The notes under the pieces were generated by a model. The model was not told where the DNA came from and did no database searches. It was given only the letters and a program-made list of their open reading frames with translations. From an uncultured Alistipes sp. (GTDB lineage: Bacteria; Bacillota; Clostridia; Oscillospirales; Ruminococcaceae), in NCBI GenBank assembly GCA_964401315.1, contig CAYNYB010000017.1:7596-71595 (forward strand): DNA of 64,000 nucleotides. Reading direction: 5' to 3'. The position numbers were made by a program, and so were the translations under genes. Positions 1,852-49,278 of this stretch are shown in pieces (position 1 is the stretch's first letter; each line of letters opens with the position of its first letter).

Positions 1852-3486
1852 TTAATTCTTTATCTGCGACGCCACAAGACTCTCTCCGCAGTAGATCTCG
1901 CGAAGCTTCGGCTTTTCTATCTTACCCGTGGGATTTCGCGGTACATCGGCAAAAACAATCTTATGAGGACGCTTGTATCTGGGCATTTTCTGACAAAATG
2001 CGTTTATCTCATCTTCGCTGCATATCATTCCGTCTTTCACGGAAATTATAGCGGCGGCAATTTCACCAAGACGCTTATCGGGAAGTCCGATAACCGCAAC
2101 ATCTTTTACAGCAGGGTGCGAACGGAGGAAATCCTCGATCTGAACGGGATAAAGATTTTCACCGCCGCTTATGATAACATCTTTCTTGCGGTCAACAAGG
2201 AAAATGAAACCGTCCTCGTCCTCCTGAGCCATATCGCCCGTAAGAAGCCAACCATCGCGAAGGCTTTCCGCCGTGGCTTTTTCATCGCGGTAATAGCAGG
2301 TCATAACTCCCGGCCCTTTTACATAAAGTTCTCCCACTTCTCCGCGCGCAACGGTATTTCCATTTTCATCGGCAATTTTTACTTCCCAGCCGAATCCGGC
2401 CTTGCCGATCGCTCCGACCTTATGTATATTTTCAACTCCGAGATGAACGCAGCCCGGTCCGATAGATTCGCTGAGACCGTAATTCGTGTCATACTGATGA
2501 TTCGGGAAATGTTCTTTCCAGCGCGCGATAAGCGACGGCGGAACAGGCTGAGCGCCGATATGCATGAGCCGCCACTGAGACAGCGAATAATCCTCAACAT
2601 TTATCTCACCTCGGTCTATCGCGTCAAGAATATCCTGCGCCCACGGAACGAGAAGCCATACGATAGTGCATTTTTCATTCGAAACGGTCTCGATTATCGA
2701 CTTCGGTTTTACGCCTTTCAGGAGAATTGCTTTGCTTCCCGAAAAGAGACTTCCGAACCAGTGCATTTTCGCGCCGGTATGATAAAGCGGAGGAATGCAT
2801 AGAAAAACGTCGTCATTAGTCTGACCGTGGTGATTCTGCTCAACCTTAGCCGAATGAACAAGGCTTTCATGATTATGAAGTATCGCCTTGGGAAATCCGG
2901 TCGTCCCCGATGAAAAATAAATAGCAGCGTCGTCGCTGTCGGTAAGCTTTACATCGGGAGCGGTGCTTGAACAATTTGCAACATTACTGTCGTAATGCTC
3001 CGCAAAAGACGGGCAGCCCTCCCCAACGTAAAACAGCAGTCTGTTGCGGCTTATTTCCTCAGCTATCTCCTCAACTCTTCCGATAAATTCAGGTCCGAAC
3101 ATAAGCACGTCGACCTCCGCCAATTCAAGGCAGTATTTTATCTCATCAGCAGTATATCTGAAATTGAGCGGCACGGCAAGAGCGCCTGTTTTGAGTATCC
3201 CGAAATAAATGGGCAGCCATTCAAGGCAGTTCATGAGAAGTATGCCTACTTTATCGCCCTTTCTTACTCCCCTTTCGAGAAGCATATTCGCAAAACGGTT
3301 AGCTTTTTCATCAAAAACCTTCCATGTTATCTCGCGCCGATAACAGCATTCGGGATTCGGCTCGATAAGTTCATATTCTTTCCATGTTACGCGCCTGTTC
3401 TCGGTGATCTCGGGATTTACCTCGACAAGGGCAATATTATTTCCGTAAAGCTGCGCATTTCTTTCAAGTAATTCTGTAATAGGCAT
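1852..3486 (-). CDS. AMP-forming acyl-CoA ligase (class I adenylate-forming enzyme)
   Basis: AMP-binding YFSSGTTGFPK, YGLSE, TGD...DRKKD and PRNPTGKIEK motifs. Confidence 0.93.
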   Translation of the reverse strand: MPITELLERNAQLYGNNIALVEVNPEITENRRVTWKEYELIEPNPECCYRREITWKVFDEKANRFANMLLERGVRKGDKVGILLMNCLEWLPIYFGILKTGALAVPLNFRYTADEIKYCLELAEVDVLMFGPEFIGRVEEIAEEISRNRLLFYVGEGCPSFAEHYDSNVANCSSTAPDVKLTDSDDAAIYFSSGTTGFPKAILHNHESLVHSAKVEQNHHGQTNDDVFLCIPPLYHTGAKMHWFGSLFSGSKAILLKGVKPKSIIETVSNEKCTIVWLLVPWAQDILDAIDRGEINVEDYSLSQWRLMHIGAQPVPPSLIARWKEHFPNHQYDTNYGLSESIGPGCVHLGVENIHKVGAIGKAGFGWEVKIADENGNTVARGEVGELYVKGPGVMTCYYRDEKATAESLRDGWLLTGDMAQEDEDGFIFLVDRKKDVIISGGENLYPVQIEDFLRSHPAVKDVAVIGLPDKRLGEIAAAIISVKDGMICSEDEINAFCQKMPRYKRPHKIVFADVPRNPTGKIEKPKLREIYCGESLVASQIKN

Positions 3487-43311: not shown

Positions 43312-44520
43312 TTAATTAAAAATTATTTCAGTTACTCCCTTAGAGCGAATTCCAAGTATTCGGCATCGCTCCTCTCCGAGGAAAGAATTCATTTTCTCCG
43401 TGTATTCTACAGCAATATATGACGGCACAAAAACCTGTACAATTCTGCCGCCGCAAACATGTACCGCGCCGCTTTCGCCAAGGAATCTCCTGCTGACAGC
43501 TACAACAGCGGCTGCCTCCTGATTCGCAGTATATTTTCCCGACTGATCGACAAGCCTGAAAAATTCCTCTGTATCGCCTATGCCCAAAGCCTTCACGGCG
43601 TCGGCTGCACGGCGATTTTCCTCAAAGAATCGAATCGCGCTCAATATAGCCGCATCTGAACAGCATTTTCGCATTTTCGGCAGTTCGTCGTAAAATTCAT
43701 CTTCATCAATATCATGCAAAAGAGATTTGCCGAAATATTTTGCAGCTTCTTTCATTCCGCGCGTCATCTCGTCAATATCATCTAAATTTTCCGAATCATC
43801 ACTTCCTGCAACTGTAATGCACACACTGTAGCCCAACGATGAAAAATCATAATCAATGGCTTTGATGATCGGAGCATTTCCGTCAAATTCAGCCGAAACC
43901 AAACCTCCTACCGCGCCGACGATCATATCGACATTAACATTCGGACTTGACATTGCGATTTTTTCAGCCGAAACCTCGCCATTATTGTAATAATTATTAA
44001 TTATGATTCCCATAAGATTTTCAAACGCCGCCGCTGCCGAAAATCCAGTATCAATCGGAATATCCGACGAAATATAGGCGTTGATTCCATATGATGAAAA
44101 ATTTTTTCCCACAAAAGCGGCAATTACTCCCCTGACGATTTCAACATACGGACTTTTTTTAGCTTCGTTTGTAAATCCGCCGTCAATATTGATCTCGCAG
44201 CATGGAAAATTCGGCGAATCAATGCGTATTACTCCATCTTCATTCGCTCCGGTAACAGCTATAATATCAATAGTTGCAGCCGCCGAAATCACGCAGCCGC
44301 CCTGACGATATGTACCCTCCTCGCCGATATTGACGCATACGGGCGAAGAAAATATTCTTATATCGTCGCATTCGGGATAAGCCCGCGAAAAATGCTCGGC
44401 TGCATTGATATACCGTGCACGCTGTTTCATTATCTCACGCTCGGAATTTCCGTAAAGTTCCCTGAATTTACTGTCAAATGCTCCTCCGGTAACGGCATTT
44501 ACAAGCTGCTGAATAGTCAT
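43312..44520 (-). CDS. Galactokinase-like GHMP protein with degenerate catalytic motifs
   Basis: GalK-like N-terminus and overall length; PIDTGFSAAAAFE in place of PxGxGLSSSAA; other motifs altered (see findings). Confidence 0.75.
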   Translation of the reverse strand: MTIQQLVNAVTGGAFDSKFRELYGNSEREIMKQRARYINAAEHFSRAYPECDDIRIFSSPVCVNIGEEGTYRQGGCVISAAATIDIIAVTGANEDGVIRIDSPNFPCCEINIDGGFTNEAKKSPYVEIVRGVIAAFVGKNFSSYGINAYISSDIPIDTGFSAAAAFENLMGIIINNYYNNGEVSAEKIAMSSPNVNVDMIVGAVGGLVSAEFDGNAPIIKAIDYDFSSLGYSVCITVAGSDDSENLDDIDEMTRGMKEAAKYFGKSLLHDIDEDEFYDELPKMRKCCSDAAILSAIRFFEENRRAADAVKALGIGDTEEFFRLVDQSGKYTANQEAAAVVAVSRRFLGESGAVHVCGGRIVQVFVPSYIAVEYTEKMNSFLGEERCRILGIRSKGVTEIIFN

Positions 44521-44618
44521 TAGTACAATCTCCAATCAATTTTTTTATTCTACTTATTATTATAAATCAAAATCGAAAAAAAATCTATAGTTTTTTTGAA
44601 TTTATTTTTTTAAATCCC

Positions 44619-45738: not shown

Positions 45739-45965
45739 ACAGCCCTCTCATTCCTCGGCAAACCTCGGTTTGTCGGGGATTTTTCATTTGAATTTATAGT
45801 AAAAACCAACAAAAAATAATGTTGATAATTGTCTGATATGTACTTCTCATGCAAATTTTTTTGATTTTTTGCAAATAATACTTGCAGTTTTTTGTGAAAT
45901 GTGATAAAATAAAATGTAACTGAAAACAAATTTCGAATAGTTATTATATGACAAAGGAGATAGTT

Positions 45966-47039
45966 ATGGCAAAAATCAAAGCTGCTGTTATTTTTGGCGG
46001 TACATCGCAGGAACACGAACTTTCACTTGCTTCCGCCGCGGAGGTAATACGCAATATTCCGCGTTCTTCGTATGAGGTAGTTTCCATCGGTATAACACGT
46101 AAGGGACGCTGGCTTTATTTCCCCGGCGATCCCTCGGAGATCGCCGACGGAAGCTGGGAATCCAATCCCGACTGCACTTCCGCTATTCTATCCCCCGATC
46201 CTCTCCACCGCGGCATTATGATCATCGAAAACGGCGAAGTCTCTTTCAGAAAGATCGACGTTGCATTTCCCGTGCTTCAGGGCAAGAGAGGCGCGGACGG
46301 CACTATTCAGGGACTTCTCGATATGTCGGGCATTCCCTATGTTGGCTGTGGTCTGCTTGCCTCGGCTTCGTGTATGGATAAGTCTCACACCCACATGGTT
46401 CTCGACGATTACGGAATCAAAACCGCCGACTGGAAACTTATCTGTCAGCGCGATCTGAGCAGGATCGACGAAAAATGTGAAGAAATTTCCCGTCTGCTCG
46501 AATTTCCGCTTGCCGTCAAACCCGCAAACAGCGGATGCAGCGCCGGAACAAGCGTTGCCCGAAATCTCGCCGAACTTATAACCGCCGTGAAAATAGCCTT
46601 TTCCAACGACAACAAGGTCGTTGTCGAAAAATACGTAAACGGCAGAAAACTTGAAGTTGCGGTATTCGGATACGACGCGCCTTTCGCTTCTTACGTAGGC
46701 GAAATTCTCCCGACAAACAAGGATTATAATCCTACGGAAGTAAGAAAAGATCCTGCCGACGATTTCCGCGTTCCCGCCGATCTTTCAGATCAGGATCACA
46801 ATATGATACGCGAAACTGCGGTAAAGGCATTCAAGGCTCTCGGCTGCAAGGGTCTCGCAAGAGTTGAATTCTTCCTTGCCGAGGACGGAACGCTTTTCCT
46901 CAACAAGGTAATCACGGCTCCGGGTCTTCGTTTTAACAGCGTTTATCCGCAGCTTATGACTCATCTTGGCATGGATATGGGATATCTGGTTGACAAACTT
47001 CTTGAGCAGGCTATTGAAAATGCCGAAAAAACCTATTAA
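45966..47039 (+). CDS. D-Ala-D-Ala ligase-like ATP-grasp protein with substituted catalytic residues
   Basis: FGGTSQEHELS, GTIQGLL, MDKS and VKPAN retained; NEVN replaced by NKVI; HG...GEDG replaced by QG...GADG. Confidence 0.8.
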   Translation: MAKIKAAVIFGGTSQEHELSLASAAEVIRNIPRSSYEVVSIGITRKGRWLYFPGDPSEIADGSWESNPDCTSAILSPDPLHRGIMIIENGEVSFRKIDVAFPVLQGKRGADGTIQGLLDMSGIPYVGCGLLASASCMDKSHTHMVLDDYGIKTADWKLICQRDLSRIDEKCEEISRLLEFPLAVKPANSGCSAGTSVARNLAELITAVKIAFSNDNKVVVEKYVNGRKLEVAVFGYDAPFASYVGEILPTNKDYNPTEVRKDPADDFRVPADLSDQDHNMIRETAVKAFKALGCKGLARVEFFLAEDGTLFLNKVITAPGLRFNSVYPQLMTHLGMDMGYLVDKLLEQAIENAEKTY

Positions 47040-47052
47040 AGAGGAGATTGAT

Positions 47053-47472
47053 TTGAAAAACGATGTTATGATTTCCCTTACCAGTATTCAGTGGCAGGAC
47101 GGCGAAAAAAATGAAACGGAGCTGCTTACCAAAGCTTCTCTTTCAAAATCAGGCGGACAGGACGTTATTTCCTACGAGGATACGACGGCTACGGGTTTCG
47201 AAGGTTCAGTTACCACCATTACCGTTGACGGCAGCCGCTCTGCGTCTATAATCCGCAAAGGAACGGCGAATTCCGTTTTGTCGCTTGAAATAGGCAGAAA
47301 ACACTTCTGCCAGTACGGTACGCCTTACGGAAATATGCAGATCGGAGTCTACACTCACGCTATCAGCAACGAACTTTCGGAAAACGGCAGACTTTACCTG
47401 AAATATACTCTTGACTTAAACTCTTCTTATCTTTCGGATAATGAAATAATTATGACTATAAATCAAGCCTGA
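47053..47472 (+). CDS. DUF1934 (YwiB-like) protein
   Basis: beta-rich; YGTPYGNMQIGV motif; sits directly before argS; TTG start with SD GAGGAG. Confidence 0.82.
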   Translation: MKNDVMISLTSIQWQDGEKNETELLTKASLSKSGGQDVISYEDTTATGFEGSVTTITVDGSRSASIIRKGTANSVLSLEIGRKHFCQYGTPYGNMQIGVYTHAISNELSENGRLYLKYTLDLNSSYLSDNEIIMTINQA

Positions 47473-47511: not shown

Positions 47512-49278
47512 ATGGCAGATCTTATTAAATCCGCATCAATGCAGCTTCGCGAACTTATTACGGAGGCTCTCGGGAAATTGGTTGCCGAGGGAACGGCTCC
47601 TGCCGATCTTCTTCCCGATTTCACAGTCGAAATACCGGCGGACAAATCTCATGGCGATTTCGCCGCAAATACGGCTATGGTGTGCGCGCGCTCGTTTAAA
47701 ATGCCGCCGAGAAAAATTGCCGAACTCATTATTGAAAAGATCGATCTGAACGGCTCGGTATTCGAACGTGCGGAAATTGCGGGTCCCGGATTTATGAACT
47801 TTTTCCTCAGCAGAAAATGGTTCGCAGACGTTGCTGAGAATGTCCTTACGGAAAAGGACGATTTCGGCAGAACCGATCTCGGAAAGGGCAGGCGCGTTCT
47901 CGTTGAATTCGTTTCAGCCAATCCAACAGGACCGATGCACATTGGAAACGCACGCGGAGGAGCTATCGGCGACTGCCTTGCAAGCGTTCTCGACTGGGCA
48001 GGATATCACACCGAAAGAGAATTCTATGTAAACGATGCAGGCAATCAGATCGAAAAATTCGGCAAATCCCTTGACCTTCGCTTTATGCAGCTTTGCAGCG
48101 AAGCAGGTAAAGCTGCTATGGAAAAATTCGCAGATAATGAACAGCTTTTCCAGCATATCTACGATCTCAGCGGCGAGGGTATGGAATTTGAAATGCCCGA
48201 GGACGTTTATCTCGGCATGGATATTATTGAACACGCAAAAAATTATTATGACATAAACGTCGATAAACTCGCTTCTGCTCCCGATCAGGAACGCAGAAAC
48301 GCTCTTGTGGACTATGCGCTCCCCATTAATATAGCAGGTCTGGAACGCGATCTGAAAAAATACAGGATCGTGTATGACAACTGGTTCAGAGAAAGCACGG
48401 TTCACGAAAAAAATGAGACCAAGGCTGTTGTGGACAAGCTTCTTGCTTCTGGTCACGCTTACGAGCAGGAAGGCGCAATCTGGTTCAAAGCTACCGATTA
48501 CGGAATGGATAAGGATTTCGTACTTCGCCGCAGCAACGGTCTGTATACTTATATAGTTCCGGATATCGCGTACCATTATGACAAACTGGTCACACGCGGA
48601 TTCGATAAGGCAATAAACGTTCTCGGAGCTGATCATCACGGCTATGTTCCGCGCCTTAAAGCGGCTCTTACCGCTCTCGGAGTCGATGCCGCAAAACTCG
48701 ACGTCGTTCTCATGCAGATGGTAAGACTTGTGAGAAACGGCGAAACTGTCAAGCTTTCAAAGCGCAGCGGCAAGGCGATCACTCTTGTTACTCTCCTTGA
48801 TGAGATCCCGATAGACGCGGCGAGATTTTATTTCAATCTCCGCGAGGCGAATTCTCAGTTCGAGTTCGATCTCGATCTTGCAGTAGAGCATTCTTCTCAG
48901 AATCCCGTATTTTATGTGCAGTACGCTCATGCGAGAATTTGCAGCCTTATCTCTAATCTTGCTTCAGAGGGCGTAAATATTCCTGAAAAAGCCGATTTTA
49001 CCCTTCTTGATAATCCGCGTGAGATAGAACTTATCCGTCATATTGCTTCTCTTCCGCATGAGATCGAAATTGCGGCGAAAAATTACGATCCTGCGAAACT
49101 CACAAAATATGCTGTCGATCTCGCTACGCTTTTCCACAGATTCTACGACGGATGCAGCGTAAAGAATGCAGAAACTCCCGAACTTATGAATGCGCGCATT
49201 CTTCTCTCTGTCATTGTAAGACAGGTGCTGAAAAACGTGCTGACCATACTCAAGATCGATCAGCCTGAAAAAATGTAA
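47512..49278 (+). CDS. argS: Arginine-tRNA ligase
   Basis: EFVSANPTGPMHIGNARG, GADHHGY, KLSKRSG and YVQYAHAR. Confidence 0.97.
   Translation: MADLIKSASMQLRELITEALGKLVAEGTAPADLLPDFTVEIPADKSHGDFAANTAMVCARSFKMPPRKIAELIIEKIDLNGSVFERAEIAGPGFMNFFLSRKWFADVAENVLTEKDDFGRTDLGKGRRVLVEFVSANPTGPMHIGNARGGAIGDCLASVLDWAGYHTEREFYVNDAGNQIEKFGKSLDLRFMQLCSEAGKAAMEKFADNEQLFQHIYDLSGEGMEFEMPEDVYLGMDIIEHAKNYYDINVDKLASAPDQERRNALVDYALPINIAGLERDLKKYRIVYDNWFRESTVHEKNETKAVVDKLLASGHAYEQEGAIWFKATDYGMDKDFVLRRSNGLYTYIVPDIAYHYDKLVTRGFDKAINVLGADHHGYVPRLKAALTALGVDAAKLDVVLMQMVRLVRNGETVKLSKRSGKAITLVTLLDEIPIDAARFYFNLREANSQFEFDLDLAVEHSSQNPVFYVQYAHARICSLISNLASEGVNIPEKADFTLLDNPREIELIRHIASLPHEIEIAAKNYDPAKLTKYAVDLATLFHRFYDGCSVKNAETPELMNARILLSVIVRQVLKNVLTILKIDQPEKM

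Follow-up and report, generated by a model that had tools for sequence, protein, structure and literature searches.

The window analysed here is a 64,000-nt stretch of DNA from an uncultured bacterium deposited as Alistipes sp. and placed by GTDB in the Ruminococcaceae (GenBank assembly GCA_964401315.1, contig CAYNYB010000017.1, positions 7,596 to 71,595 of the forward strand). The gene in question, on its plus strand at 45966..47039, encodes a 357-residue protein with the full ATP-grasp fold of the DdlA/VanG-type D-alanine--D-alanine ligases (Ddl). Its reading frame opens at ATG 45966, and a Shine-Dalgarno sequence (AAAGGAG, 45953..45959, plus strand) lies six nt 5' of this codon, in agreement with the full-length frame and good ribosome-binding site described in an initial annotation made from the letters of this DNA. 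A terminator-like hairpin with a T-run (45752..45779, plus strand) ends the upstream GH130 gene and marks the 5' boundary of the transcription unit. Downstream on the same strand follow a DUF1934 gene (47053..47472), with a likely TTG start 13 nt past the stop of the Ddl-like gene and a GGAG of its own, and argS for arginyl-tRNA synthetase (47512..49278), the third gene of a conserved ddl-DUF1934-argS array. No terminator-like sites were seen among these three genes, and Rfam models of riboswitches, T-boxes and leaders had no match in the 43 to 51 kb interval. The initial annotation had taken the apparent operon as a hint of function. However, the same array with a canonical Ddl also occurs both in related genera and outside the family, elsewhere in the order, and by this shared position the window gene is the positional orthologue of the family's ancestral argS-linked ligase of DdlA/VanG type. 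The linkage is ancestral and therefore says nothing about a new function.

To judge by domain models, the two Pfam domains of the family cover the protein end to end (Dala_Dala_lig_N, PF01820, 111 bits; Dala_Dala_lig_C, PF07478, 164.5 bits). Among the NCBIfam models, the window protein passes those of subfamily rank (NF002528, 323 bits with a cut-off of 262; TIGR01205, 268 with a cut-off of 246) and fails every equivalog model (for example NF002526, 280 against 449). Moreover, its NF002528 score is 113 bits lower than that of its canonical sister (436 bits). By HMMER alignment, the closest solved structures are VanA (PDB ID: 1e4e) and VanG (PDB ID: 4fu0). An AlphaFold2 model computed from 75 homologues reached a mean predicted local distance difference test (pLDDT) value of 93.2 and a predicted template modelling (TM) score of 0.90, with the omega loop (about residues 251-270) as its sole low-confidence part. 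Foldseek comparison of this model gave a TM score of 0.89 to VanG (4fu0) and of 0.86-0.90 to VanA and DdlA structures. As modelled, the window protein is an intact, well-folded protein of the Ddl type. An identity as VanG or VanA was considered and rejected, as the protein scores below the respective models (321.7 against 495 for VanG and 246 against 775 for VanA), has lost catalytic residues, and has GH130, DUF1934 and argS as neighbours without vanRS, vanT or vanXY.

Residue roles are given here in DdlB numbering, with the substitutions taken from the HMMER alignment to VanA and VanG and from an alignment to 30 relatives. In the Ddl family, two Mg2+ are bound by Asp257 and Glu270 (Asp262 and Glu275 in PMC6899670), while His63, Arg255 and Asn272 (there His70, Arg260 and Asn277) are key for catalysis, and Lys97, Lys144, Glu180, Glu187 and Glu270 (there Lys104, Lys148, Glu184, Glu192 and Glu275) show 98-100% conservation across 588 Ddl sequences (PMC6899670). 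Roles for Glu15, Arg255 and Gly276 are described in PMC5717164. In the window protein, the three Mg2+ ligands Asp257, Glu270 and Asn272 correspond to Glu301, Lys314 and Ile316, such that two are lost outright and the third is now Glu. Here, Lys314-Val315-Ile316 (46905..46913; all residue coordinates are on the plus strand) stands in place of Glu270-x-Asn272, and Glu301 (46866..46868) at the Asp257 position is a change common only to the closest relatives. The equivalent of Glu180 is retained as Glu221, whereas the ribose-binding Glu187 (Glu192 in BpDdl) is replaced by Lys228 (46647..46649). Codons 105-110 (QGKRGA, 46278..46295) place Gln at the His63 position and Ala110 at that of Glu68. The remodelled omega loop (residues 249-271, 46710..46778), which has low confidence in the model, has lost the equivalents of Lys215 and Tyr216. 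In addition, a new and near-invariant basic residue, Arg322 (46929..46931), sits in the PGxT(S)xS substrate loop at a position that is Thr in 100% of canonical relatives. Both phosphate lysines, the adenine-binding Glu, and the equivalents of Arg255, Gly276, Ser281 and Glu15 are all retained. Every motif change listed in the initial annotation is therefore present in the window protein (HGKSGEDG to QGKRGADG, GSS to GCS, GRE to GRK, RVDMF to RVEFF, NEVNT to NKVIT, and FYDYxAKY to DYNPTEVRK), as are the retained lysines of MDK and VKP. Nonetheless, this list is clade-wide only in part, since RVEFF, Ile316, Cys191 and Gln105 are not, and the change of GRE to GRK has a further meaning, in that loss of the ribose-binding Glu would alter adenosine recognition besides metal binding. 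With these residues, the window protein should be unable to coordinate the two catalytic Mg2+ in the manner of every characterised Ddl.

Exactly two Ddl genes were found when the entire assembly (2.85 Mb) was scanned with Pfam. The second (locus L002) lies outside the window on another contig of the same genome, within a cassette of a divergent murF and a ddl of about 400 codons (G000:C2, ~120.0-122.9 kb). Placed directly downstream of murF, this ddl carries a Gly/Ser/Lys-rich insertion in its omega loop and has all of the expected motifs (HGTNVEDG, GSS, EQKY, RIDF and NEINTIPG). The initial annotation had proposed looking for a canonical ddl elsewhere in the genome and had weighed the chance that the window gene is the only one; the murF-linked gene on C2 is such a canonical ddl. 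The cassette murF is only 29% identical to that of G022, a basal species of the genus with the usual murE-murF-mraY array, and a native murF is missing in the window genome, where murE is directly followed by mraY (G000:C1, 140254-142476). Because murE and mraY adjoin and the cassette murF is so distant from that of G022, we consider that the divergent murF-ddl cassette has replaced the native murF and supplies the canonical Ddl. The same cassette is found in five other genera (MurF 50-61% and Ddl 57-64% identical).

The genus (Ruminococcus) was surveyed through 24 genomes of other species. An orthologue of the window gene is present in 22 of them (62-95% identity), the long murF-linked ddl in 22, and both genes in 21; one of the assemblies (G019) is only 66% complete. 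The basal species G022 retains a native murF, and its one ddl, which occupies the same locus, is fully canonical. One genome (G013) has the degenerate copy without the long ddl, though this apparent exception is an assembly gap, as no murF of any kind is found in that assembly. The orthologues read comprised 20 complete genes and a truncated one (G005/L034), whereas G004/L021, with 355 residues aligned, was left out of the length check. All 21 orthologues read are degenerate. The 20 complete ones among them and the window gene, 21 degenerate genes in all as read from DNA, each encode exactly 357 residues.

Conservation of the altered residues was followed in the 121 closest database proteins, which share at least 68% identity and are all assigned to Ruminococcus where named. 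None has the NEVN that the initial annotation would have expected of orthologues had the changes been strain-specific errors, since Lys314 occupies the Glu270 position in 121 of 121. Position 316 is Gly in 117 of 121, which makes the Ile of the window protein rare, and position 301 is Asp in 118 and Glu in three; Glu301 and Ile316 are late, lineage-specific changes. Position 110 is Ala or Gly throughout (121/121) and position 322 is Arg in 119. In the omega loop, Tyr254 and Pro256 are both found in 121/121, with a conserved Asp or Asn between them at position 255. Among the retained residues, the lysines equivalent to Lys97 and Lys144 are kept nearly without exception (Lys139 in 121/121, Lys185 in 120/121), as are Glu221, Arg299, Ser325 and Glu16 (each in 121/121). 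In contrast to these, position 191 is polymorphic for Cys and Ser, and position 105 varies among Gln, Ile, Met and His. Over the clade, the omega-loop motif FYDYxAKY has become xYDPT(E/D)(V/F), with Val or Phe at the Lys215 position and a varying residue at that of Tyr216. From the Glu15-Ser150-Tyr216 triad, Glu16 is kept, while the Ser150 position is Ser, Cys or Thr. The equivalents of His63, Ser150/151, Lys215 and Tyr216 are, in other words, now variable within the clade. We also contrasted 143 degenerate clade sequences with 78 canonical relatives, and six positions proved to be fixed on both sides though for different residues (a type-II pattern): Glu to Lys228, Tyr to Pro256, Glu to Lys314, Asn to Gly316, Thr to Arg322, and Met to Val326. 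For example, position 228 is Lys in about 98% of the 143 clade sequences and Glu in 100% of the 78 canonical relatives. The new residues are fixed at 94-100% in the clade, in which 143 of the 357 positions are at least 95% conserved.

Pairwise ratios of nonsynonymous to synonymous substitutions (dN/dS, Nei-Gojobori) point to strong purifying selection. For the Ddl-like gene the ratio against the closest species is 0.040 (dS 0.67), and the values for the same species pair are 0.062 for argS, 0.061 for DUF1934 and 0.055 for GH130. Other close pairs give 0.07-0.13 for the Ddl-like gene, and the Ruminococcus degenerate clade has internal branches no longer than canonical Ddls have. That the gene is maintained rather than decaying, as the initial annotation had argued, is borne out by these values. 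As for transcription, contigs more than 99% identical to an orthologous locus (L020, 71% identity) are present in four metatranscriptomes from pig, sheep and bovine gut, where single contigs cover both the Ddl-like gene and DUF1934, and depth is zero in the ~250-nt intergenic region immediately upstream. Four further runs (X1-X4) were tried as RNA evidence and set aside, as their contigs come from a close relative (~94% identity to the window) and keep a flat depth through the intergenic stretches, and they probably represent metagenomic DNA. Zero reads came from four RNA runs of 2026 that carry the same organism label.

A number of side observations concern the DNA around these genes. In the intergenic region shortly before the Ddl-like gene (window 45872-45912), the contigs of X1-X4 break at an AT-rich segment of ~30-40 nt, where short contigs of high depth pile up, which suggests a dispersed repeat; an exact 40-mer from this segment occurs only once in the window. 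At L020, the segments 1012-1146 (upstream of the Ddl-like gene) and 3044-3098 (between DUF1934 and argS) show very high depth and contig breaks in the metatranscriptomes, along with an alternative joint that skips 133 nt, and resemble copies of a short repeat of dispersed type, akin to a miniature inverted-repeat transposable element. Within the DUF1934 coding sequence, window positions 47225-47252 (plus strand) match a sigma-70 promoter at 11 of 12 positions (TTGACG-16-TATAAT) and may be an internal argS promoter or a chance match. Finally, a 407-residue open reading frame on the minus strand (43312-44535), between cls and GH130, has no Pfam match at E<=0.001; a 28%-identical homologue of it adjoins the Ddl-like gene in one relative of the genus (L017).

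In a maximum-likelihood tree of 110 Ddl sequences, the Ruminococcus degenerate clade is monophyletic (Shimodaira-Hasegawa-like approximate likelihood ratio test, SH-aLRT, 95) and nests with the canonical genes of G022, G076, G062, G129 and G051 (SH-aLRT 99). We then have the family at large, sampled as one genome for each of 120 genera with 80 further loci read. The argS-linked or DdlA-type copy is canonical in all 45 genomes with a single ddl, and both copies are canonical in the 12 genomes with an additional VanG/VanA-like gene. In all nine genomes with a second, murF-linked canonical ddl (seven of the long type in the order murF-ddl and two in the order ddl-murF), however, the argS-linked copy is degenerate. 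Degeneracy is therefore found in 9/9 genomes with the murF-linked ddl versus 0/57 without it (Fisher p = 2.7e-11, where genomes are counted and not independent events). Seven degenerate copies belong to seven genera other than Ruminococcus (loci L118-L124 in genomes G114, G053, G120, G102, G064, G158 and G140), and all seven lie at the DUF1934-argS locus of a genome with a murF-linked canonical ddl. In these, the Glu270 position is Gln, Asn or retained, Arg255 or Asp257 is lost in some, and branch lengths reach 0.5-1.4. Five genera have the long ddl only, the old one having gone. A representative-level search of public data yielded further degenerate Ddl-like proteins (P0127, P0138, P0141, P0165, P0168, P0172, P0180 and P0228). 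In a tree of the linked gene argS, the taxa bearing degenerate copies are scattered among canonical ones, G022 falls within the Ruminococcus clade (SH-aLRT 100), and a tree constrained to unite all degenerate-bearing taxa in one clade is worse by 271 log-likelihood units (approximately unbiased test, p-AU 2e-6). As an aside, a second copy of the VanG/VanA-like kind is common in the family (12 sampled genomes), and G120 has three Ddl-type genes (L050, L051 and L129), these being the degenerate argS-linked copy, a canonical VanG-like one (FFDFTEKY, NEVNTIPGFTAHSR), and the long murF-linked one.

Taken together, we consider the window gene to be probably a catalytically dead yet maintained Ddl paralogue (pseudo-Ddl) with a non-catalytic role, and we infer that it no longer makes D-Ala-D-Ala. 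In the scenario that we propose, the murF-ddl cassette would have taken over the ligase job, with deletion of the native murF. The argS-linked copy would then have lost both Mg2+ ligands other than the Asp (Glu270 to Lys, Asn272 to Gly or Ile), together with changes of Glu187 to Lys and Glu68 to Ala or Gly and the loss of Lys215 and Tyr216 of the omega loop. Thereafter, the pseudo-Ddl would have been frozen at a constant 357 residues, with Lys228, Pro256, Lys314, Gly316 and Arg322 near-invariant and a low dN/dS. The two-Mg2+ carboxylate site would by these steps have turned into a pocket lined with Lys and Arg. In terms of charge, the replacement of Glu68, Glu187 and Glu270 by Ala, Lys and Lys, plus Arg322, would amount to +5 and would roughly make up for the missing Lys215 (-1) and the two missing Mg2+ (-4). 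Since this swap goes along with putative phosphate and adenine contacts (Lys97, Lys144, Glu180) and contacts to D-Ala or D-Ala-D-Ala (Glu15, Arg255, Gly276, Ser281) that are invariant, the likeliest mechanism would be that the pocket binds an anionic ligand independently of metal and does not turn it over, which we put forward as a tentative idea that may well prove wrong. Candidate ligands would be a nucleotide, D-Ala(-D-Ala) or a precursor related to it, or a nucleotide together with one of these, and the protein might serve the supply of cell-wall precursors as a sensor, regulator or scaffold. More speculatively put, and no likelier, the ancestral argS-linked Ddl could have had a second, non-enzymatic role that was exposed only once the murF-ddl cassette relieved it of catalysis and that Ruminococcus fixed in the form of a dedicated pseudo-Ddl, with the Lys228/Lys314/Arg322 pocket binding a nucleotide or D-Ala precursor without metal and signalling or scaffolding in peptidoglycan precursor supply. 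Partners would possibly be the divergent MurF or DUF1934/ArgS.

Several points weigh against the pseudo-Ddl proposal. Its inactivity is read from residues, and the suggested ligands and partners from the pattern of those kept and those changed. The equivalents of Asp257 and Arg255 and both ATP lysines are kept in most of the clade, where one-metal or Lys-assisted chemistry is conceivable. For the window species itself, the search for RNA data found none. With regard to recurrence, the unit of the Fisher test is the genome and not the independent event, the Ddl tree by itself is compatible with one common origin for every degenerate copy (p-AU 0.244), and the case for independent origins would stand on the single-gene ArgS proxy together with lineage-specific substitutions. 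The strongest competitor is that the protein is still an enzyme, either an ATP-grasp ligase whose chemistry or substrates have changed (for instance, with an acyl phosphate formed by one metal or with help from Lys, and another D-aminoacyl product as the outcome) or one with a non-ligase activity through Lys314 and Arg322. Purifying selection and new invariant pocket residues would fit a new activity equally well, and the equivalents of Lys97, Lys144, Glu180, Arg255, Gly276, Ser281 and Glu15 are invariant, with that of Asp257 present in 118/121. Yet the Glu270 and Asn272 equivalents are conserved throughout the ATP-grasp superfamily, and Glu192 and Glu275 in 98-100% of Ddls (PMC6899670), whereas five catalytic or cofactor positions are altered together here. 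Besides, the residues contacting the first D-Ala and the transferred phosphate (His63, Ser150/151, Lys215 and Tyr216) vary within the clade, which is unexpected for a catalytic site, and our literature searches yielded no ATP-grasp enzyme that is active while carrying Lys in place of Glu270, though this is negative evidence only. We hence regard a surviving enzymatic activity as unlikely.

Less probable still is a slowly decaying relic, whose frame would be kept because nonsense mutations in a first cistron before the essential argS are polar, while the protein itself is functionless. It is true that the gene comes first in ddl-DUF1934-argS without an internal terminator and is co-transcribed in the orthologue, that the degenerate copies of other genera sit on long branches (0.5-1.4) compatible with relaxed constraint there, and that the gene has been lost altogether in the five genera with the long ddl only. 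But polarity by itself sets no amino-acid constraint, which contradicts a relic held by polarity alone, given that dN/dS within Ruminococcus is 0.04-0.13, selection being as strong as on argS, and that the constant length, the 143 highly conserved positions and the fixed new residues all speak of constraint on the protein. For the fast-evolving copies of other genera, a relic is nevertheless possible. As to an assembly or sequencing artefact, or strain-specific mutations in the only ddl, we give this practically no credence, since the same substitutions recur in the genomes of 22 other species and in 120 independently sourced protein clusters, independent contigs ~94% identical to this locus (close relative) occur in four other runs, and a second, canonical ddl is present in the genome. 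In this respect, too, the losses first noted in the window are not a strain-specific error.

Ddl is a core enzyme of peptidoglycan synthesis and the target of D-cycloserine. Homologues of the window protein bear the database name D-alanine--D-alanine ligase where named (one as a 'family protein'), yet the gene, carried throughout a genus of major gut and rumen fibre degraders, almost certainly cannot perform this reaction. The annotation of Ddl is automatic and follows homology. Any metabolic model, prediction of essentiality or screen for resistance genes in which the gene counts as ddl would then err. The pseudo-Ddl proposal would also mean that one cassette displaced two native genes with opposite fates, murF being deleted and ddl being kept, remodelled and frozen under selection. 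The recurrence in several genera points to an unrecognised non-catalytic role of a Ddl-fold protein, and the substitutions may offer a natural set for seeing how lysines can replace the two-metal site of an ATP-grasp protein. Should the more speculative reading of a second, non-enzymatic role be true, the pseudo-Ddl would be the first ATP-grasp pseudoenzyme in bacteria to have arisen from a core enzyme of the cell wall, and nature would have repeated an experiment that shows moonlighting by Ddl. In our literature searches, we found neither a described Ddl-derived pseudoenzyme nor a bacterial case of a Ddl-derived protein with a non-ligase role, and those on ATP-grasp pseudoenzymes returned only TTLL12 and a SidJ preprint.

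In comparison with known systems, the pseudo-Ddl has in common with the DdlA-type Ddl and the VanG and VanA ligases (PDB IDs: 4fu0, 1e4e and 3i12; EC 6.3.2.4) the three-domain ATP-grasp fold and the Pfam N- and C-terminal domains, and it shares its ancestral genomic position with the canonical Ddl of sister genera. Unlike DdlA, VanG and VanA, it lacks Glu270, Asn272, Glu187, Glu68 and the omega-loop Lys215 and Tyr216, and has gained the invariant Lys228, Pro256, Lys314, Gly316 and Arg322. Degenerate copies of other genera (L118-L124; P0127, P0138, P0168 and P0172) are alike in locus, in the accompanying murF-linked ddl and in the classes of loss (Mg2+ ligands, omega loop and GEDG). However, these have longer branches and no Lys228/Lys314/Arg322 signature, and the constraint on them may be weaker or different. 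Further afield, the pseudokinases CASK and STRADalpha bind nucleotide without metal, and resemble the pseudo-Ddl in having replaced metal ligands, kept nucleotide contacts and been conserved beside an active paralogue, though with another fold and chemistry this is an analogy only. Synapsins, eukaryotic proteins of an unrelated lineage and cellular context, have kept an ATP-grasp fold for a non-ligase role and bind ATP with no known catalysis. TTLL12, a protein of the TTL-type fold, is reported not to catalyse the expected reaction (PMC3520985); it too would be an ATP-grasp/TTL-type fold kept for a non-ligase role, in an unrelated lineage and a eukaryotic context. By fold and descent, the pseudo-Ddl is a member of the Ddl family, but since it fails on the defining catalytic features it should not be filed as a D-Ala-D-Ala or Van ligase.

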